64,000 bases of DNA from Flavobacteriaceae bacterium (GCA_947457615.1 CANGWK010000001.1:79044-143043); one strand, 5' to 3'. Shown: positions 20,382 through 28,796, numbered from the stretch's first letter. Translations and numbers: made by a program. The notes: generated by a model from the letters alone, not told the origin.

Positions 20382-20456
20382 TCGGGGTGGCAGGATTCGA
20401 ACCTGCGGCCTCCTGCTCCCAAAGCAGGCGCGATAACCGGGCTACGCTACACCCCG
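20382..20456 (-). tRNA. tRNA-Pro (TGG)
   Basis: Minus strand CGGGGTGTAGCGTAGCCCGGTTATCGCGCCTGCTTTGGGAGCAGGAGGCCGCAGGTTCGAATCCTGCCACCCCGA: acceptor stem, TGG anticodon, GTTCGAATC T-loop; CCA not encoded. Confidence 0.97.
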
Positions 20457-20466
20457 TTAGCGATTG

Positions 20467-20474
20467 CAAATATA
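20467..20474 (-). promoter_or_regulatory. -7 promoter element for tRNA-Pro
   Basis: TATATTTG on the minus strand, about 10 nt upstream of the tRNA. Confidence 0.65.
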
Positions 20475-20575
20475 AAAACAAAAATCGGTTAAAAAAGTGT
20501 TTTCTACTATTAATTCTATTTATTTAATATAGATAATTCTAATAGGTTTTTTGGGAATATATTTTAATAAAAACT

Positions 20576-20583
20576 TACATTTG
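20576..20583 (+). promoter_or_regulatory. -7 promoter element for trxB
   Basis: TACATTTG about 21 nt before the ATG at 20605. Confidence 0.6.
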
Positions 20584-20604
20584 CATTTACTAAAAAATCA
20601 TGTT

Positions 20605-21552
20605 ATGTCTGAAACAATTGAAAAAATAAAATGTCTTATTATAGGTTCCGGTCCTGCTGGTTATACAGCTGCAATATATGCTTCTAGAGCCAATATGTAT
20701 CCGGTTTTGTACCAAGGAACACAACCTGGCGGACAATTAACAACAACCAATGAAGTAGAAAACTGGCCTGGAAACCCTGAAGGAATTACTGGACCTGAAA
20801 TGATGGTTAATTTACAGCTACAAGCACAACGCTTTGGCACCGATGTTCGAGATGGCTGGGCCACAAAAGTAGATTTTTCTGGTCCTATTCATAAAGTATG
20901 GATTAACGATACTAAAGAATTGCACTGCGAAACTGTAATTATTTCTACAGGAGCTTCTGCTAAATATTTAGGATTAGACTCGGAACAGCATTATTTAAAA
21001 ACAGGTGGTGGTGTTTCAGCATGTGCTGTTTGCGATGGTTTTTTCTACAGAAATCAAGAAGTCGTTATTGTTGGAGCTGGAGATTCGGCTTGTGAAGAAG
21101 CACATTACTTATCTAAGCTTTGTAAAAAAGTTACTATGCTAGTTAGAAGTGAGCAATTCAGAGCTTCTAAAATCATGGCAGAACGCGTAAGAAAAACCGA
21201 AAATATTGAAATTTTACTTAATACTGAAACAGATGAAGTATTGGGAGACGGACAAGTTGTTACTGCTGTTCGTGTAAAAAATAGAACCACGGGAGAAACT
21301 AACGAAATTCCCGCAACTGGATTTTTTGTGGCAATTGGACATAAGCCAAATACAGATATTTTTAAAGAATTTTTAACTCTTGATGAAACTGGCTATATTT
21401 TAACCATTCCTGGTACTGCAAAAACTAAAGTTGCTGGTGTGTTTGTGGGAGGCGACGCTGCAGATCATGTTTATCGCCAAGCGATTACTGCTGCTGGAAC
21501 TGGTTGCATGGCCGCTTTGGATGCAGAACGTTACTTAGCAAGCAAAGAGTAA
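20605..21552 (+). CDS. trxB: Thioredoxin-disulfide reductase
   Basis: IIGSGPAGYTAA, GGQL, SACAVCDG, VGAGDSACEE, GDAAD..YRQAITAAG. The ATG at 20605 fits the upstream promoter. Confidence 0.97.
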   Translation: MSETIEKIKCLIIGSGPAGYTAAIYASRANMYPVLYQGTQPGGQLTTTNEVENWPGNPEGITGPEMMVNLQLQAQRFGTDVRDGWATKVDFSGPIHKVWINDTKELHCETVIISTGASAKYLGLDSEQHYLKTGGGVSACAVCDGFFYRNQEVVIVGAGDSACEEAHYLSKLCKKVTMLVRSEQFRASKIMAERVRKTENIEILLNTETDEVLGDGQVVTAVRVKNRTTGETNEIPATGFFVAIGHKPNTDIFKEFLTLDETGYILTIPGTAKTKVAGVFVGGDAADHVYRQAITAAGTGCMAALDAERYLASKE

Positions 21553-21574
21553 GTTATTATTATTTTAAATATTC

Positions 21575-21612
21575 AAATCCTTTAAAAGAAATTACTTTTA
21601 AAGGATTTTTTT
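21575..21612 (+). terminator. Terminator after trxB
   Basis: AAATCCTTTAAAAG-N6-CTTTTAAAGGATTT followed by a T-run. Confidence 0.8.
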
Positions 21613-21746
21613 TTCATTAAAATCTATTTTTTAGGTCCAATAATGGATTGTTTTATATAAAAAACACCAGCCAAAAAACAAATTTATCAGATAGAAATAG
21701 TAAAGTAAAATCCTGAGTTAGACTTCAAAAAGATAACATCTAAAAA

Positions 21747-21754
21747 TAAATTTG
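21747..21754 (+). promoter_or_regulatory. Candidate -7 element for the YHYH operon
   Basis: TAAATTTG about 56 nt before the ATG; no clear -33 TTTG. Confidence 0.4.
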
Positions 21755-21810
21755 TAAATTGTACAAGAAATTTATAGTAATAGCATCTAAAAATTTAAAA
21801 GAAATAAATT

Positions 21811-23415
21811 ATGAAAAAAATCATCCTAATTCTAGTCTGTATGTTGAACAGTTATATGTTTTCGCATACTTTAAATTACGAAAAAATTGTATTAAGACAT
21901 TGGTCTATTCAAAAAGATAATACTTTTATTGAAGGATCTTTTAGTAAATTAAAAAATGGATTAGTTTCTATTGAAGATGCGCAAAATAGAATTATTAATG
22001 TTCCTTTAGAATCACTTTCGGATGCCGATCAAGCGTATGTAAAGAAAAGAGAAGAAGCTATTATTTATTTAAATACTTCTATTCCTTCAGTAAAAAAGTC
22101 GGAAAATAATTCTCCTTTCTTAATAAAATCTTTACTGATTGTTATTTTTTTATTGGTTTTTGGGATATGTATTTTCAAAATCGCAGAAAGAAAAAAAATA
22201 AAATATTTAGTTCCAATACTTTTTGCTGGTTTAGTGATGACTTTATTTAGTTTTGGCAAAAAATTACTTACCACTACTGATCCTAACTTTGTAAATTCTG
22301 CTTTTATTCCATTCATTCCAAACGTTCATACTTCTTGGGATAGCAATTATTTTTATGTAGAAAGCAAAGGAATTGCTAACCACACTATGATGGTAGGAAT
22401 ATCCAATCACGGTTGGCAACAACAAGTACCAATTCCACAATGTTACATCGGTAATAACCATTGGAGTATCCCTTTGAATCCAGTAATAGCAGCTACTCCC
22501 ACCCTAATTGACAATGTACATTTTACTAGAGGTGCTATTGCTCTTGCTGCTAATGGAGTGCCAATTTTTAACTATCACACTAATACCGGTATTGATTCGT
22601 ATTTGGATGGACAATTAGATAACTATGGAGGTCACTGCGGTAAAGGAGATGATTATCATTATCATACTGCTCCTATTCACTTATATACATTAGGTCAAAC
22701 CTCACCAACTCTCCCTTGTGCTTTTGCGTTTGATGGGTTTGCCGTTTATGGTAGTTTAGAATCAGACGGAACACCAATGACAGCTCTGGATACTAATCAT
22801 GGCCATTATGGAACTAACGGAATTTATCATTACCACGGAACTGCAACAGCACCTTATATGATTGGGAGTTTCGTAGGTCAAGTAACTGAAGATGCGACAC
22901 ATCAATTAATTCCGCAAGCAGCAGCACATCCAGTCCGTTCAGAAAATTGGGGGCCTCTTGGTGGTGCACTTATCACTTCCTGTCTTGCAAATGCAAACAA
23001 TAATGGTTATAACCTTTCATACAGTTTAAATGGAACTCCAGGATATGCTACTAATTTTAGTTGGAGTGGCTCAACTTATACCTTTAATTATGTTACGCCT
23101 ACCGGAACTATTCCTACAAATTATAATGGTTTCAATCAATGTAACGTTCCATTAACCAACAATGTTTTTGCTTTGGATAATGCTATTACATTATATCCGA
23201 ATCCAGCAAAAGATGTTCTTCAAATAAATCTTGGAAATGATATTTTCGAAAATGACATTCAAAATATTGATATCTACGGAATTAAAGGAGATTTAATTTT
23301 AAAAACAAATAGTTTTAAATCTAATATTGATATAAAAAACTTATCTTCTGGAACTTATTTTGTTAAATTTCAATTTTCAAATGCACAGATAACTAAAAAA
23401 CTACTAGTAAAATAA
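21811..23415 (+). CDS. YHYH-domain protein with N-terminal SHD1-like domain, two internal hydrophobic helices and T9SS type-A CTD
   Basis: Signal peptide; RHWS..IEGSF..VPLESLSDADQAYV; GAIALAANGVPIF, GGHCGKGDDYHYH, FAFDGFAVYG, GIYHYH; CTD LYPNPAKD..GTYFVK..KKLLVK. Confidence 0.85.
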   Translation: MKKIILILVCMLNSYMFSHTLNYEKIVLRHWSIQKDNTFIEGSFSKLKNGLVSIEDAQNRIINVPLESLSDADQAYVKKREEAIIYLNTSIPSVKKSENNSPFLIKSLLIVIFLLVFGICIFKIAERKKIKYLVPILFAGLVMTLFSFGKKLLTTTDPNFVNSAFIPFIPNVHTSWDSNYFYVESKGIANHTMMVGISNHGWQQQVPIPQCYIGNNHWSIPLNPVIAATPTLIDNVHFTRGAIALAANGVPIFNYHTNTGIDSYLDGQLDNYGGHCGKGDDYHYHTAPIHLYTLGQTSPTLPCAFAFDGFAVYGSLESDGTPMTALDTNHGHYGTNGIYHYHGTATAPYMIGSFVGQVTEDATHQLIPQAAAHPVRSENWGPLGGALITSCLANANNNGYNLSYSLNGTPGYATNFSWSGSTYTFNYVTPTGTIPTNYNGFNQCNVPLTNNVFALDNAITLYPNPAKDVLQINLGNDIFENDIQNIDIYGIKGDLILKTNSFKSNIDIKNLSSGTYFVKFQFSNAQITKKLLVK

Positions 23416-23418
23416 TCA

Positions 23419-24624
23419 ATGAAAAAAATAGCATTTCTTTTTCTATCCTCTATATCCTTTGCACAAACTGTTACCAAATCAATAGCATTGTTGCCAGATA
23501 CAGGACAAACAACTAGTTATACTACAACTTTTGGCGAAGACCAGGATTATAGTATTAATGTTCCCTCTTTTACAAATAATGGGAATGGCACAATAACAGA
23601 TAATGTTACTAAATTAATTTGGCAACAAACGGATGGTGGTGAAATGACTATAGAAAATGCAATTACTTATTGCAATTCTCTTTCTCTAGGAGGATATTCC
23701 GGATGGCGATTACCTACCCCAATGGAGGCTATGAGTATTCTTAATTTACAAAAAAATAATCCTGCAATGGATATAGTATACTTCCCTTCTACAGGTGCAG
23801 AATATTGGTGGACCAACACGTTTCAATTTGGTGATAACACTAAAGTATGGTGCACAAATTCTGGCGGAGGAATTGGTAACAAACCAAAAACAGAAACAAT
23901 AAGTGCTGGAGGAACTAAAAGTTACCATGTAAGAGCAGTTAGAAATGTTATAACTACAGCAATTTTACCTAATCATTTTACGGATAATGGCGATGGAACA
24001 ATAACCGATAATGTAACCCAATTAGTTTGGCAAAAAGTACCCAATCCAAATATTTTCAATTGGGAACAAGCAATCAGTTATGCTGAAGGTTTAACTTTGG
24101 CAAGTGCAACGGATTGGCGGTTACCTAATATAAAAGAATTACAATCGTTAAACATGGATAGCGCTTCTAATCCTTCAGTGAATACAACTTATTTTAATAC
24201 CATTGGGATTCATAATTATTGGTCTTCTACAACACTTTTACCAAATTCTGCCAATTTAACTAGTGCATGGTATTGGAATACACAATTCGGAATTACCTCC
24301 CACGATATCAAAACCAATTTAAATTATGTAATTTGCGTAAGAGGAAATCCCGTTTTAAGTTCCTCAGAATTCATAGTGGAAAATAACGTTAAAGTATATC
24401 CAAACCCTGCATCGAATTATGTTGTATTAAATTTCCCAAAAGTTATAAATTTAGTGCAAATAGAAATGATAGACGTAAATGGGAAAATTGTTTTTACTAA
24501 AAAAGAAAAATCAATTTCAAACGAGTATAAAATCGATATTAAAGATTTTTCAGATGGAATATATTTTATTAATCTAAGCAGTGAGAATTTAAAAAACACT
24601 TATAAAGTACTTATAAAAAAATAA
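23419..24624 (+). CDS. Tandem DUF1566 (Lcl C-terminal-like) domain protein with T9SS type-A CTD
   Basis: LPDTGQT, two copies of FT(N/D)NG(N/D)GTITDNVT.L.WQ..WRLP..E..YW..V(R/I)(A/C)VR; CTD VYPNPASN..GIYFI. Confidence 0.85.
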   Translation: MKKIAFLFLSSISFAQTVTKSIALLPDTGQTTSYTTTFGEDQDYSINVPSFTNNGNGTITDNVTKLIWQQTDGGEMTIENAITYCNSLSLGGYSGWRLPTPMEAMSILNLQKNNPAMDIVYFPSTGAEYWWTNTFQFGDNTKVWCTNSGGGIGNKPKTETISAGGTKSYHVRAVRNVITTAILPNHFTDNGDGTITDNVTQLVWQKVPNPNIFNWEQAISYAEGLTLASATDWRLPNIKELQSLNMDSASNPSVNTTYFNTIGIHNYWSSTTLLPNSANLTSAWYWNTQFGITSHDIKTNLNYVICVRGNPVLSSSEFIVENNVKVYPNPASNYVVLNFPKVINLVQIEMIDVNGKIVFTKKEKSISNEYKIDIKDFSDGIYFINLSSENLKNTYKVLIKK

Positions 24625-24626
24625 TC

Positions 24627-26234
24627 ATGTTTAATAAAAATTTCTTTATTGTTTTATTCTTTATTGGTTTTAATAATTATGCGCAACAGCGAAATGTTGT
24701 TTTAATTATTGTTGATGATTTAGGAAAAGATTACTGTGATATTTATCCAGATCACGGAGCTAATGTTGTTAATTTAACAAATGTAAGAAGACTTTTACCT
24801 CGTGGAGTTGTTTTTAATAATGCATGGTCCAATCCTTTATGTTCACCAACTCGCGCTGGAATTCTTACTGGGAGATATAGTTTTAGAACTGGTGTAGGCG
24901 ATGTTGTTGACGGTGGTAACACAAAATTAAATATTAATGAAAAAATTATTCCAAAGGTCTTGAATATTTATTCACCTAATGGAATATCTAAAGCTTGTAT
25001 AGGAAAATGGCATTTAACAACCTTTGCACCATTAGGGTACAATTACCCGACAACAATGGGTTTTGATCATTTTGAAGGAAGTTTAACAGGGGCTTTAGGA
25101 CAACCGGGACAACTAGTAACAGGGTTTAATAATTGGACTAAAATTACCAATGGTGTAAGTTCAAACTGTACTAATTATGCCACAACCGAAAATGTTAACA
25201 ACGCTATATCCTATATAAATAGTCAACCAGCAACAAAACCTTTCTTTTTATATTTAGCGTTTAATGCACCACATACCCCCTATCATTTACCTCCTGCTAA
25301 TTTGATTACCAATACTAATTTATCTGGAACACAAGCAGATATTACTGCTAATCCGGTACCTTATTTTCAAGCTATGACTGAGGCTTTGGATAAAGAAATA
25401 GGACGCTTTTTTGACTATTTAATTAGTTCAGGAAAATGGGATACTACCGATATCATTTTTATTGGCGACAACGGTGATGATTCTTTAGTGGCACAATCTA
25501 ATCCATCAAAAGGAAGTATTTATCAAGCAGGAGTTACAGTTCCATTTATTATTTCTGGACCAGATGTAGTAAATCCTAATAGAACTAATAATTCTTTAGT
25601 AAATACTGCTGATTTATTTGCTACAATTTTAGAACTTTTTGGAGATAGTAATTGGCAAAGTCAAATACCAACAACTATTGTTGATAGTCATAGTTTGTTG
25701 CCGATACTGTTAAACCAAACTACATCCGTAAGAACATGGGAATTTACAGAGATTTTTAAATTGATGCCATCATCCGGAGATGGAAAAGCAATAAGAAATA
25801 CCGATTATAAATTAATGAAGTTTGATGATGGTACTGAAAAGTTTTTCAACTTAACCAATACCCCAGTAGAAACTAATAATCAAAATTTACTTTTGGGCAC
25901 CCTTACTCCTAATGACATTACTAATTATAGCTACTTATGTAATCAAATGACAACTTTAGTTGGAGGTCCCTCCTATTGTAATCCATTACTATCTGTGGAT
26001 AATTCTACTTTTGAAAACAACGAAATAAAAATATTTCCAAATCCTTTTCATTTCAAAATAAATTTAAAATCCTATTCCGGAAATGAAAATTACGAACTAT
26101 ATTCTAATTTAGGACAACTTATTTTTAAAGGAAAATCTATTGAAAATCAAGATTTTTCTGCGTTAGCAGATGGTATCTATTTCTTGAAAATAACCGACAA
26201 AACAAGCTCCACTTTTAAGTTGGTTAAAGAATAA
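24627..26234 (+). CDS. Secreted Cys-type (formylglycine) sulfatase with T9SS type-A CTD
   Basis: IIVDDLG, CSPTRAGILTGRY (CxPxR), GKWHL, NAPHTPYH, GDNG, KGSIY; CTD IFPNPF..GIYFLK. Confidence 0.9.
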   Translation: MFNKNFFIVLFFIGFNNYAQQRNVVLIIVDDLGKDYCDIYPDHGANVVNLTNVRRLLPRGVVFNNAWSNPLCSPTRAGILTGRYSFRTGVGDVVDGGNTKLNINEKIIPKVLNIYSPNGISKACIGKWHLTTFAPLGYNYPTTMGFDHFEGSLTGALGQPGQLVTGFNNWTKITNGVSSNCTNYATTENVNNAISYINSQPATKPFFLYLAFNAPHTPYHLPPANLITNTNLSGTQADITANPVPYFQAMTEALDKEIGRFFDYLISSGKWDTTDIIFIGDNGDDSLVAQSNPSKGSIYQAGVTVPFIISGPDVVNPNRTNNSLVNTADLFATILELFGDSNWQSQIPTTIVDSHSLLPILLNQTTSVRTWEFTEIFKLMPSSGDGKAIRNTDYKLMKFDDGTEKFFNLTNTPVETNNQNLLLGTLTPNDITNYSYLCNQMTTLVGGPSYCNPLLSVDNSTFENNEIKIFPNPFHFKINLKSYSGNENYELYSNLGQLIFKGKSIENQDFSALADGIYFLKITDKTSSTFKLVKE

Positions 26235-26237
26235 ATT

Positions 26238-26807
26238 ATGGTTATTTTTTCTACTGCACTTCAGTACCTCTCAATAGGATTTACCCATGTTGTTCCGTAC
26301 GGTTTTGATCACTTGCTTTTTATCTTAAGTATTTTCTTTTTAAATTCTAATTTGAAATCCAAAGCAATTCAATGTTCGGTTTTTACTCTTGCTCATTGTT
26401 TGTCTTTAGGATTAGTAGTATCTGGTTTAATATTTCCTAACAACAATTATATAGAACCCTTAATTGCTTTTTCTATTCTGTTTATCTCTATTGAAAATAT
26501 TATTCAAACCAAAGTAAATCCCCACCGATTATTAATCCTTTTTGGATTTGGATTAATTCACGGAATGGGATTTGCTACTGCGTTAAAAGAAATCGGAATT
26601 CCCAAAGATCTATTTTTTACTTCATTATTATCTTTTAATATTGGAGTAGAATTAGGTCAAATCACGGTCCTTTTAGCAGTCTATTTTTTAATTAGTAAAT
26701 GGTTTGCACACAAAACCTGGTATAAAGAAAGGGTGGTTTACCCAATCTCTTGTTTGATAGGATGTGTAGCATTGTATTGGACCATTGAGCGTATATTAAT
26801 TTTGTAA
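26238..26807 (+). CDS. HupE/UreJ family membrane protein
   Basis: GFTHVVPYGFDHLLF, FTLAHCLSL, EPLIAFSI, FGLIHGMGFA, FNIGVELGQ. Confidence 0.85.
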   Translation: MVIFSTALQYLSIGFTHVVPYGFDHLLFILSIFFLNSNLKSKAIQCSVFTLAHCLSLGLVVSGLIFPNNNYIEPLIAFSILFISIENIIQTKVNPHRLLILFGFGLIHGMGFATALKEIGIPKDLFFTSLLSFNIGVELGQITVLLAVYFLISKWFAHKTWYKERVVYPISCLIGCVALYWTIERILIL

Positions 26808-26830
26808 TTAATATTTAATTTTCACAGCTA

Positions 26831-28123
26831 CTATTTTATTAATATCACAGAAACTCTTCTTGCTAAATCAAGTCCTGTTTTGGAGGAACTTGGGTAAGTA
26901 GTGTCAACTCCTTCGGCACTGACCGTCATTCTGCTATCACTAACACCTGTAGAAACTAAGAAATTTTTAATTTTAATTGCTCTACGTTTAGACAAATCAA
27001 GATTATTTAATTCTCCACCGCGAACATCAGCAAAACCTGTAAGTTTAATTTTAGATTCTGGATTATTTTTCAAATATTGAGCTAACAAATGGATGTTATT
27101 TTCTGATCCTTTATTAGGCATGTCTTCATTTACATCAAAAAATATATTTATGTTAAGTTTACCGTTTTCAAAGGAGGAACTAAAAGAATCATTATTATTA
27201 TTATTATTCACAATAACGTCAGCTTTTATTGGTTCTTCGTGCTCTAATTCATCTGGGATTCCATTTTTATTTAAATCAATGAATCTACCTTTTGTATCTA
27301 CAACAATACCTGTTGGAGTATTGTTTTGCAAATCTAAATAATCTGGAACACCATCTTTATCTGTATCTAACATAGATTTTTCAATTTCCGCAATTCGTTT
27401 TCTAGCATCGTCATCCACTTTAGAAGCTAGAGAAATATACCAATCTGCATGAACCTTATTTTTATCTCCAATATAGAAAGTTAGACCTAGTGAAGTATTA
27501 TAAATAGAACCTGTAAGATTATTTGCATCTTCAGAATAAGATCCATCCCAATTAAAGTGCTGTCTTAGATTATTTATGTAAGTAAAATCGCCATTTATAA
27601 CCAGCCAATTAGTCAATCTATATTGTGGAGTTAATCCTAAAATTAGCCCTCCATTATCTTCAGAAAGACCTTGGTTAATTCCGATTTGTGGTTTTAATTT
27701 TGAAAATTGCACACCTCCATGTGCTAATAAACCAATTCGTTTAGTGAAAGTTTCAAATTTAAGTAATCTTGAAAAATTCATTACGCCTTGAATTCCTAAA
27801 CGATATTGTTTTAAATTAAATTCTAAAGAACCACTTCCGCTTTGGTTTTTAATCTCATCATAAGCCAGATCAGCTTTTAATCCAAATAATGGAGAAAACA
27901 TATACCTTACCCCAAAATCATAGTGTTCAATACCATTAAAATAAAAGTAAGAATTTGGTTTAGATGTAAAATAACCAGGAGCAAAATTACTTAATGGCCT
28001 GTTTTGACCGGCACTTAATTCAATTGACCAATTATTATAGAGGTCTTTTTCTTTTTTTTCAACTTGGGCATAGGTAAACATTGCAATTGATGCAAATACT
28101 CCCAAAAACATTCTTTTTTTCAT
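26831..28123 (-). CDS. OmpA family outer membrane protein
   Basis: Signal peptide, beta-barrel-like N-terminus, DTDKDGVPDYLD Ca-binding-like repeat, C-terminal IFFD..LTGFAD..NLDLSKRRA..RRV. Confidence 0.9.
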   Translation of the reverse strand: MKKRMFLGVFASIAMFTYAQVEKKEKDLYNNWSIELSAGQNRPLSNFAPGYFTSKPNSYFYFNGIEHYDFGVRYMFSPLFGLKADLAYDEIKNQSGSGSLEFNLKQYRLGIQGVMNFSRLLKFETFTKRIGLLAHGGVQFSKLKPQIGINQGLSEDNGGLILGLTPQYRLTNWLVINGDFTYINNLRQHFNWDGSYSEDANNLTGSIYNTSLGLTFYIGDKNKVHADWYISLASKVDDDARKRIAEIEKSMLDTDKDGVPDYLDLQNNTPTGIVVDTKGRFIDLNKNGIPDELEHEEPIKADVIVNNNNNNDSFSSSFENGKLNINIFFDVNEDMPNKGSENNIHLLAQYLKNNPESKIKLTGFADVRGGELNNLDLSKRRAIKIKNFLVSTGVSDSRMTVSAEGVDTTYPSSSKTGLDLARRVSVILIK

Positions 28124-28310: not shown

Positions 28311-28796
28311 TTAAAAATCAATTTTTTCATTTATATTTTCATTAATATAATTAATAACATGCCTTATTCTATAAGGGACATCTTCAATAATTTTTTTGTC
28401 ATTTTTTAATAAATCAATATTTTTATGCAAATAATTATAAAATATTAATTTCAAACTAGCATTCATATCCATTTCTCTGAAGGGCTTTACAAAAAAACCA
28501 TACGGGCGAGTACGTTTTACTTTTTCTATGGTTATACTATCCGCATTAGATGATAAATAACAAAATGGAATTAAATCCTCATTAAGCAAATACTGACCTA
28601 AATGAATACATTTTATTATTTCCTCATCAATATCTATTAATACTAAATGAATATTATTAGTTTCCATATAGTTAACAAGATCAATAGTAAAGATGGATAT
28701 GAATTTTAAATCATAATCTTCATCTTCAATAATGCTTTGTATATTTTGGAATAAAGAAAAATCTGAGCCAACAATTAAAATGTTGTTTTTTTTCAT
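28311..28796 (-). CDS. Response-regulator receiver protein, apparently lacking its output domain
   Basis: LVLIDI, YLSSNAD, RPYGFFVKPF. Ends at YRIRHVINYINENINEKIDF*, which resembles the first helix of an AraC HTH. Confidence 0.65.
   Translation of the reverse strand: MKKNNILIVGSDFSLFQNIQSIIEDEDYDLKFISIFTIDLVNYMETNNIHLVLIDIDEEIIKCIHLGQYLLNEDLIPFCYLSSNADSITIEKVKRTRPYGFFVKPFREMDMNASLKLIFYNYLHKNIDLLKNDKKIIEDVPYRIRHVINYINENINEKIDF

Follow-up and report, generated by a model that had tools for sequence, protein, structure and literature searches.

A conserved Flavobacterium gene cluster joining a YHYH protein, a lectin-like protein and a bare HupE/UreJ-2 permease with secreted hydrolases

A stretch of 64,000 nucleotides from a Flavobacteriaceae bacterium (GCA_947457615.1, CANGWK010000001.1:79044-143043; here called the window, to which all positions given without another name refer) contains four tightly packed genes at 21811-26807. 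Gene 1 (21811..23415, 534 amino acids, aa) encodes a YHYH protein, gene 2 (23419..24624, 401 aa) a protein with two Lcl_C/DUF1566 domains, gene 3 (24627..26234, 535 aa) an S1 formylglycine sulfatase, and gene 4 (26238..26807, 189 aa) a bare HupE/UreJ-2 inner-membrane permease; the first three products begin with a signal peptide and end in a C-terminal domain (CTD) of the type IX secretion system (T9SS). Open reading frame (ORF) calls place the four genes, with all the domains and motifs described below, on the plus strand, and leave gaps of 3, 2 and 3 bp between them, which is how a first-pass annotation made from the sequence alone had described the locus. Going by the gene neighbourhoods that we surveyed, genes 1, 2 and 4 are the constant core of this cluster, the hydrolases are variable and the sulfatase is optional; the cluster is conserved in freshwater Flavobacterium and is found in altered form in other Bacteroidota.

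The four genes and their products

To our knowledge, the YHYH family (PF14240), which is widespread in bacteria, diatoms and phages, has no known function or structure. Gene 1 matches the family profile with 48 bits (cut-off 25) and only in part, over positions 1-110 of 193; two other YHYH proteins of the same genome score 185-193 bits, and the YHYH part of gene 1 is, on sequence grounds, a divergent subfamily of PF14240. The AlphaFold (AF2) model of the whole protein (mean predicted local distance difference test, pLDDT, 84.6) consists of an SHD1-like barrel, two membrane helices (TM1 and TM2), a compact YHYH core, an immunoglobulin (Ig)-like sandwich and the CTD. When this model was compared with PDB structures by Foldseek, only the CTD, SHD1-like and Ig-like parts were matched, and a PDB sequence search matched the CTD alone. 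The possibility that gene 1 is a gene fusion or an annotation artefact was rejected, as the full architecture is found as one ORF in about 80 orthologues from several families.

At the N-terminus, the signal peptide is predicted to be followed by a mature N-terminal histidine, His19, and by an SHD1-like β-barrel at residues 28-81 (together 21865..22053). Of 50 aligned orthologues at least 90% have His19, and in 77 of 80 orthologues a histidine directly follows the small residue at the end of the signal peptide, as in the sequences ...FS/HT of gene 1 and ...LA/HPGGHY of Chitinophagaceae (here and below the slash marks the site discussed). The SHD1 profile match stays below threshold in the Pfam and NCBIfam scan; the barrel of the AF2 model resembles SHD1 of Sla1 (2hbp; Foldseek TMt 0.71, root-mean-square deviation 1.5). 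The barrel is followed by a membrane hairpin (22117..22257), made of TM1 (residues 103-124), a basic loop ERKKIK, and TM2 (residues 133-149) ending in S-F-G/KK; the corresponding helices of the AF2 model span residues 101-124 and 127-147.

Two membrane helices thus stand between the signal peptide and the cargo part of gene 1, and the cargo can be soluble only if TM2 is cut, presumably at its outer end. The orthologues differ at exactly this point. A lipobox (for example LIVAC/S) occupies the end of TM2 in 49 of 56 orthologues that lack a CTD and in 1 of 24 that have one, whereas 23 of the 24 CTD-bearing orthologues have S-F-[AG]/KK and no cysteine; two of the seven exceptions among the CTD-less proteins, L006 and L062, actually carry CTDs. 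The simplest reading of TM2, whose end is mostly a lipobox in one CTD class and a signal-peptidase-I-like site in the other, is that of an internal signal peptide; cutting there may turn the YHYH half into a lipoprotein in one lineage and into T9SS cargo in the other.

The YHYH core (22282..22950) is modelled with confidence even on its own (AF2 pLDDT 90.1, predicted TM-score 0.89), and Foldseek finds no fold match to it among PDB structures (best E 2.2). In the alignment of 50 sequences H191, H275, D280, D281, H283, H285, D308 and D327 are invariant, H332, H340, H342 and C276 are kept in at least 90%, and the motifs GGHCGKGDDYHYH and YHYHG vary little or not at all. Our search of the literature on YHYH/PF14240 returned only two metal-site predictions. 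YHYH has been predicted to be a metal-dependent hydrolase (PMC7824862), and the invariant histidines and aspartates fit the published predictions of a metal site with three His (plus Asp).

The CTD of gene 1 (23191..23409) is of type A by PF18962 and TIGR04183, and its model resembles the CTD of NucA bound in the T9SS complex (8glk_D, Foldseek TMt 0.87); the CTDs of genes 2 and 3 are at 24394-24615 and 26031-26219. Against PF18962 (cut-off 27) the three score, in gene order, 56.4, 53.4 and 37.6 bits, and against TIGR04183 (cut-off 23) 41.5, 43.1 and 42.5 bits. T9SS machinery is present in the same genome, namely SprA (contig C2:147522, 452 bits), GldM (C22:8083, 157 bits) and, on contigs C22 and C7, GldK/GldJ-like proteins with the domain of formylglycine-generating enzyme (FGE). 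The proposal of the first-pass annotation that three of the genes have type-A T9SS CTDs is therefore well founded. Genes 2 and 3 carry plain signal peptides.

Lcl_C is known only as a C-type-lectin-like module. Gene 2 has two such domains in tandem, at about 23587-23943 and 23995-24342 (169 bits in the Pfam and NCBIfam scan), and its search against PDB sequences gave no useful match.

Gene 3 includes a sulfatase domain (24690-25643; PF00884, 150 bits) with the motif CSPTR (24840-24854), that is, C72-S-P-T-R76. Along with the CxPxR motif, the DDLG (D30-D31), CSPTRAGILTGRY, GKWHL and DNG motifs align with the solved S1 enzymes GalNAc-6-sulfatase (7stt) and carrageenan sulfatase (6prm), and by this alignment the catalytic and metal-binding motifs of gene 3 are intact. 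The nearest solved relatives are carbohydrate sulfatases; since the similarity to PDB proteins (E ~1e-31) is divided evenly among several subfamilies, it does not allow a substrate to be named. Gene 3 differs from the solved enzymes also in having a T9SS CTD and in lying outside any polysaccharide utilization locus (PUL). The only true FGE of the genome, at G000:C25:22848-23765 (277 bits), has a signal peptide and belongs to a sulfatase island with five PF00884 genes on contig C25 (14000-34000, locus L119); it is likely the maturase of the window sulfatase. In two relatives (G152 and G188) an FGE, again with a signal peptide, adjoins the orthologous sulfatase.

HupE/UreJ-2 proteins are permeases of divalent metals, not importers of anions. 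Gene 4 matches HupE_UreJ_2 (PF13795) with 135 bits (cut-off 24.5) over practically the whole profile (residues 10-157 against positions 1-154 of 156), and its sequence contains the motifs GFTH16..GFD23H24, H53, FGLIH107G and E137. The protein begins at its first membrane helix and has neither a signal peptide nor a periplasmic N-terminal domain; a PDB sequence search gave no useful match.

Recurrence of the cluster and the place of the sulfatase

In a family-wide survey of one genome per genus, 151 genera in all, anchored on gene 1, only four other genera proved to have good gene-1 orthologues, and no Lcl, HupE or sulfatase gene was near any of these. Read alone, this survey would suggest that the cluster is not conserved, a view corrected by loci from within the genus and from metagenomes. 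Orthologues of all four genes are clustered in three genomes. Their order is trxB, two Metallophos-CTD genes, gene 1, a gene for a 407-aa CTD protein and genes 2, 3 and 4 in G200, and genes 1, 2, 3 and 4 in G174; G152 has a rearranged version, with a multicopper oxidase (MCO) with a CTD, an AhpC/TSA redoxin, gene 3, FGE, a CTD protein, gene 1, a small TonB-receptor plug protein, gene 4 and gene 2. A fourth genome, G188, has genes 2, 3, FGE and gene 4. The four-gene combination is present in at least four Flavobacterium lineages, and the arrangement is not due to chance, since it recurs in other Flavobacterium species. Sulfatase orthologues are present in 5 of 60 other sampled species of the genus; in G198 the orthologous sulfatase is followed by a MauG-like gene and a 450-aa ORF.

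Full-length gene-1 orthologues with 58-92% identity, mainly from Flavobacterium metagenomes, make up more than 120 clusters in a protein database; judged by the names attached there to near-identical proteins, the window organism is itself a Flavobacterium. The typical form of the cluster is seen in the complete genome of Flavobacterium sp. N1994 and in three other long contigs, which carry, in this order, genes for an extracytoplasmic function (ECF) sigma factor, a small protein, a PF13801 protein, two secreted Metallophos proteins, YHYH-CTD, Lcl_C-CTD and HupE/UreJ-2, and none of the four has the sulfatase; the cassette of ECF sigma factor, short anti-sigma factor and PF13801 protein is seen in L032, L033, L044 and L046. 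Complete relatives such as Flavobacterium sp. N1994 and sp. SUN046 have YHYH-Lcl-HupE after two secreted metallophosphoesterases, and no sulfatase.

A neighbourhood survey, suggested as a check by the first-pass annotation, confirms the co-occurrence. We compared 80 species-representative gene-1 loci, annotated by phmmer with seed proteins; each count takes in only those loci whose flanks are long enough, and for divergent families it is a minimum. Where gene 1 bears a CTD (Flavobacterium and kin), Lcl_C is found downstream in 13/13 loci, HupE downstream in 10/13, the sulfatase in 6/13, and Metallophos genes in 9/12, as two secreted purple-acid-phosphatase-like genes upstream. Where gene 1 has no CTD (Chitinophagaceae, Cytophagaceae and others), the corresponding counts are 1/40, 3/40, 0/40 and 9/33; HupE follows the gene-1 orthologue directly in three Chitinophagaceae loci (L057, L058 and L061). 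The Chitinophagaceae locus L094 has ECF, PF13801, MCO, redoxin, Lcl, YHYH and two Metallophos genes, and because the same families stand there in a different order, a functional link is indicated rather than descent of the cluster as a block.

On the gene-1 tree, the loci with a sulfatase occupy four or more separate positions. A single late insertion of the sulfatase gene is not supported on that account, and the scatter indicates that the sulfatase is, as far as this tree can tell, an accessory patchily kept or exchanged, in either direction.

The window itself has a trimmed version of the cluster. In nucleotide alignment with the relative L036 (blastn, 86-89% identity), window 20401-21614 corresponds to L036 5172-6382 and window 21728-27300 to L036 9921-15481, so that the alignment resumes 83 bp before gene 1. 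The intervening 113-bp segment (21615..21727) replaces 3.54 kb with two T9SS metallophosphoesterase genes in L036, and we read it as the scar of a deletion by which the window lost both phosphoesterase genes and kept the sulfatase. No orthologue of these phosphoesterases was found elsewhere in the 2.85-Mb, ~95%-complete genome. Compared with the fuller operon of Flavobacterium sp. N1994 (CP109999), sp. SUN046 and F. luteum NBRC 112527, the order of YHYH-CTD, Lcl_C-CTD and HupE/UreJ-2 is the same, whereas the window lacks the ECF/anti-sigma/PF13801 cassette and both metallophosphoesterase genes and has, between Lcl_C and HupE, a sulfatase that most versions do not. The sole PF13801-like gene of the same genome is on contig C4, in a second YHYH cluster (G000:C4:28900-34950; L117 2902-8933) along with genes for a 233-aa protein, an MCO with a CTD, an AhpC/TSA redoxin, a MauG-like di-haem peroxidase and a canonical YHYH-CTD protein.

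Several other families accompany the gene-1 orthologues. A CTD protein of about 405 aa with no Pfam domain is encoded between genes 1 and 2 in several relatives (L010 11810-13033, L014 7182-8393, L040, L046, L048 and L052) but not in the window; in Opitutae (L112 and L115) YHYH is fused to a related domain. The phosphatidylethanolamine-binding protein (PEBP) family (YbhB/YbcL, PF01161) is represented in none of 12 CTD-class loci and in 21 of 33 CTD-less ones, beside the gene-1 orthologues of Chitinophagaceae, Sediminibacterium and Ferruginibacter (L056-L098), and sometimes as a fusion to the orthologue (L009 and L098). Many CTD-less loci have a second, short YHYH paralogue just downstream. Some loci of Flavobacterium or Chitinophagaceae type come from records of metagenome-assembled genomes titled Candidatus Nitrotoga, Comamonas, Chitinophaga pinensis or Spirosoma fluviale (L045, L046, L067, L071 and others), which are probably mislabelled bins or contamination.

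Boundaries of the unit and the upstream region

Upstream, the unit is limited by the intrinsic terminator (21575..21608, plus strand) of trxB (20551-21552), a stem of 14 pairs followed by a T-run, in a region that matches L036 as far as position 21614 (blastn). Downstream it is closed by a convergent gene of the OmpA family. The Pfam scan identifies the flanking genes as trxB, helicase-like, OmpA-family and receiver-domain genes; the last is a 161-aa ORF on the minus strand (28311-28796), two genes downstream of the operon, with a sub-threshold receiver-domain match (24 bits, cut-off 30) and no output domain.

The first-pass annotation had given the operon both this terminator and a promoter-like region of its own. 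The terminator stands, and the promoter is poorly supported. A sigma-70 scan is at background, with 38 sites against 32.3 +/- 6.4 in shuffled sequence. The sole Bacteroidetes-type -7 box seen, TAAATTTG (21747..21754, plus strand), agrees with the consensus TAnnTTTG and lies 57 bp before the ATG; it is weak evidence, as by our own estimate the chance of one such match in the 258-bp AT-rich spacer is about 0.2, and the box is not conserved in the nearest relatives L036, L052, L037 and L038. An imperfect palindrome, GTAAATTGTACAAGAAATTTATA, at 21754-21776, about 35 bp before the start of gene 1, is well kept in the same four relatives, in which the rest of the spacer is not; it may be an operator or leader element.

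The ECF/anti-sigma/PF13801 cassette of other loci is absent here, and no adjacent SusC/SusD pair is found among the neighbours, in agreement with the earlier statement that this is not a classical PUL. ORF calling and the Pfam scan of the window reveal no glycan-degrading or import genes near the operon; a small gene for a TonB-dependent receptor plug is near the orthologous cluster only in G152.

Metal capture, ester hydrolysis and other possible roles

The first-pass annotation had envisaged a surface module that either binds and hydrolyses an extracellular sulfate ester or scavenges metal, with uptake through HupE/UreJ. Metal scavenging fits the HupE/UreJ-2 permease better. A module centred on the sulfatase is not what the loci show (sulfatase in 6/13 of the CTD class against Lcl_C in 13/13 and HupE in 10/13), and uptake of a hydrolysis product by a carrier of divalent metals is unlikely. 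Since the sulfatase is optional and phosphoesterases are the commoner partner, this is not a dedicated sulfate-ester system.

A precedent for metal capture beside such permeases dates from 2025, when HupE/UreJ-2 proteins of Pseudomonadota and Actinomycetota were reported with fused periplasmic domains, Ang-1 and Ang-2, whose N-terminal histidine binds Cu2+/Ni2+, with nanomolar affinity for Cu2+, and metallophosphatases were reported among the commonest neighbours of Ang-2 (Franco Cairo et al., PMC12537917). Our cluster shares with these "anglerase" proteins a PF13795 permease, a periplasmic domain with a conserved mature N-terminal histidine, and frequent metallophosphatase neighbours. The difference is that the permease is bare and the domain with the N-terminal histidine (His1 of the mature protein) belongs to another polypeptide, that of gene 1, and has a membrane helix of its own as a tether; a fused His1-permease of the Ang-1/Ang-2 kind is not found in gene 4. 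The gene-1 domain is, furthermore, SHD1-like instead of an Ang β-sandwich, it is fused to YHYH and a T9SS signal, and metal binding by it is only proposed. The three anglerase ingredients, a periplasmic His1 domain, a PF13795 permease and, in relatives, metallophosphatases, thus occur on separate genes of the cluster, which in relatives is also joined by the ECF/anti-sigma/PF13801 cassette, a T9SS multicopper oxidase and a TlpA-like redoxin.

The explanation that we favour, with a little less than even confidence, is an operon in which metal-dependent ester hydrolases and a lectin-like binder, displayed at the cell surface, are coupled to a pair made of the gene-1 stub, which captures metal in the periplasm, and the permease of gene 4. 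The gene-1 product would be exported by Sec, and removal of its N-terminal signal peptide before His19 would expose that histidine as the free N-terminus of an SHD1-like domain, which stays in the periplasm, held to the inner membrane by TM1. TM2, with the basic loop inside and the small-residue S-F-G site outside, would be a second, internal signal peptide, and its cleavage by signal peptidase I would free the YHYH-Ig-CTD part for T9SS transport to the cell surface; in CTD-less orthologues the lipobox at the same position would make the YHYH part a lipoprotein. The products of genes 2 and 3 would likewise be secreted by T9SS, the sulfatase after maturation in the periplasm by the signal-peptide-bearing, copper-dependent FGE of contig C25. 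The tethered His1 stub would act as the fused anglerase domains do elsewhere, capturing a divalent transition metal (Cu, Ni or Co type) beside the bare gene-4 protein. Only tentatively do we propose the fuller scheme for gene 1, which as a whole is doubtful: a two-in-one precursor, cut at an internal signal peptide whose type follows the destination (lipobox for a lipoprotein, signal peptidase I site for T9SS cargo), its stub with the free N-terminal histidine serving in trans as an anglerase for a bare HupE/UreJ-2, and its released YHYH part being a metalloenzyme with a fold absent from solved structures.

Several considerations weigh against this explanation. Judging by the top Foldseek matches, no homology links the SHD1-like stub with the Ang-1/Ang-2 β-sandwich. 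Bareness does not single out gene 4, because bare HupE/UreJ-2 is the rule in these genomes: a second HupE/UreJ-2 of the same genome (197 aa), between unrelated genes, is bare as well, and five genomes of the CTD-less class have bare HupE/UreJ-2 away from gene 1. HupE adjoins the gene-1 orthologue in only 3 of 40 CTD-less loci; co-occurrence at the genome level (5/5) was set aside as support, since the permease is apparently ubiquitous in these genomes and the count does not discriminate. The contrast between lipobox and CTD follows phylogeny (Chitinophagales and Flavobacteriales, respectively), so that the counts are not independent, and cleavage at an internal signal peptide would be unusual. 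Co-transcription of genes 1-4 is presumed from the 2-3 bp gaps. Finally, an importer directed towards the cytoplasm would be of no obvious help to enzymes metallated in the periplasm.

Among the other explanations, scavenging from organic esters only is unlikely. The cluster would be a kit for obtaining phosphorus (here also sulfur) in nutrient-poor fresh water, in which secreted phosphoesterases, the sulfatase and a YHYH hydrolase free phosphate or sulfate from dissolved organic matter held by the lectin-like protein, with HupE as a cofactor supplier or a passenger and no transport role for the His1 stub. Nearly all of the 80 loci indeed come from metagenome-assembled genomes of lakes or ponds, the commonest partners are purple-acid-phosphatase-like enzymes with CTDs, and YHYH is itself a predicted metal-dependent hydrolase (PMC7824862). 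A MauG-like gene beside PhoX is strongly induced by phosphate starvation in F. johnsoniae (PMC8115612), and a MauG-like gene is found here beside the YHYH paralogue; the same phosphate-starvation paper, however, makes no mention of the families of this cluster, and no Pho-regulon link is known for these genes. The regulator, where there is one, is a CnrYXH-like ECF/PF13801 cassette, a type linked to periplasmic metal sensing, the window genome has dropped both phosphoesterases and kept YHYH, Lcl and HupE, and the conserved N-terminal histidine would be left unexplained. Another explanation is a module for envelope metal stress or homeostasis, most likely of copper, in which the YHYH and His1 proteins buffer or traffic periplasmic metal with the MCO, the TlpA-like redoxin and a CpxP/CnrX-like sensor, HupE is a facilitator and the hydrolases are passengers. 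FGE is copper-dependent, MCO-CTD and AhpC/TSA redoxin genes stand beside gene-1 orthologues in G152, SUN046, L062, L094 and L106, the C4 cluster of the same genome combines PF13801-like, MCO-CTD, redoxin, MauG-like and YHYH-CTD genes, and Ang domains bind Cu2+ at nanomolar affinity (PMC12537917). In some relatives the MCO, a periplasmic N-terminal-His protein and an inner-membrane permease come together in a manner that recalls the CopA/CopC/CopD copper set. This likeness does not extend to sequence, no relation to CopC or CopD being known, and the window locus has no MCO. We regard such a module as distinctly unlikely: in the seed search MCO and redoxin lie within 6 kb in 0/12 CTD-class and 1/33 CTD-less loci, an occasional link, the hydrolase genes stand in close array within the operon rather than at its edges, and classical copper-resistance genes (CopB, CusCBA, P-type ATPase) were not seen in the loci.

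More improbable still is a dedicated system for binding and desulfating an extracellular sulfated substrate, with Lcl_C as the binder, the sulfatase as the enzyme and HupE for uptake. The intact motifs of the sulfatase, its kinship with carbohydrate sulfatases and the four-gene order in several Flavobacterium lineages agree with it, and the C-terminal domain of Legionella Lcl, which has the same DUF1566/Lcl_C domain and C-type-lectin-like fold, binds sulfated glycosaminoglycans (PMC11162425). Yet this binding requires the charged cavity of a trimer, and the generic role of DUF1566 is unclear (PMC11162425); gene 2 lacks the N-terminal helix and the collagen-like repeats of Lcl, carries the domain twice in tandem where Lcl has it once, and is a predicted substrate of T9SS and not of the type II secretion system, and its trimerisation and glycosaminoglycan binding would be hypothetical. 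Moreover, Lcl_C and HupE are equally regular in loci without the sulfatase, HupE/UreJ proteins transport metal cations, and no genes for glycan degradation or import are nearby. As for a chance juxtaposition of unrelated genes for secreted proteins, CTD proteins are numerous in Flavobacterium, and the gene-1 search matched CTDs in 108/151 genera; the same families, however, stand together across species at 50-90% identity, rearranged in G152 and in another family in L094, and chance is hardly credible.

We found no publication describing this cluster, and nothing on HupE together with multicopper oxidase and Flavobacterium; the earlier statement that the combination has no functional description holds for the literature searched, although the anglerase paper of 2025 (PMC12537917) has a direct bearing on the combination. 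The tie of HupE/UreJ-2 to metal capture by an N-terminal histidine is itself no older than that, and the cluster unites YHYH and HupE/UreJ-2 in one conserved operon with secreted metal-dependent hydrolases. For annotation, the sulfatase is unsuited as the functional label of the locus, of which the window copy is a variant with the sulfatase gained or kept and the phosphoesterases and regulator lost. The carriers are abundant freshwater Bacteroidota, living where phosphorus and trace metals limit growth, and include the cultured F. luteum NBRC 112527 and Flavobacterium sp. N1994. If the internal signal peptide of gene 1 is real, it would show a way for a single gene to supply the inner membrane as well as T9SS.

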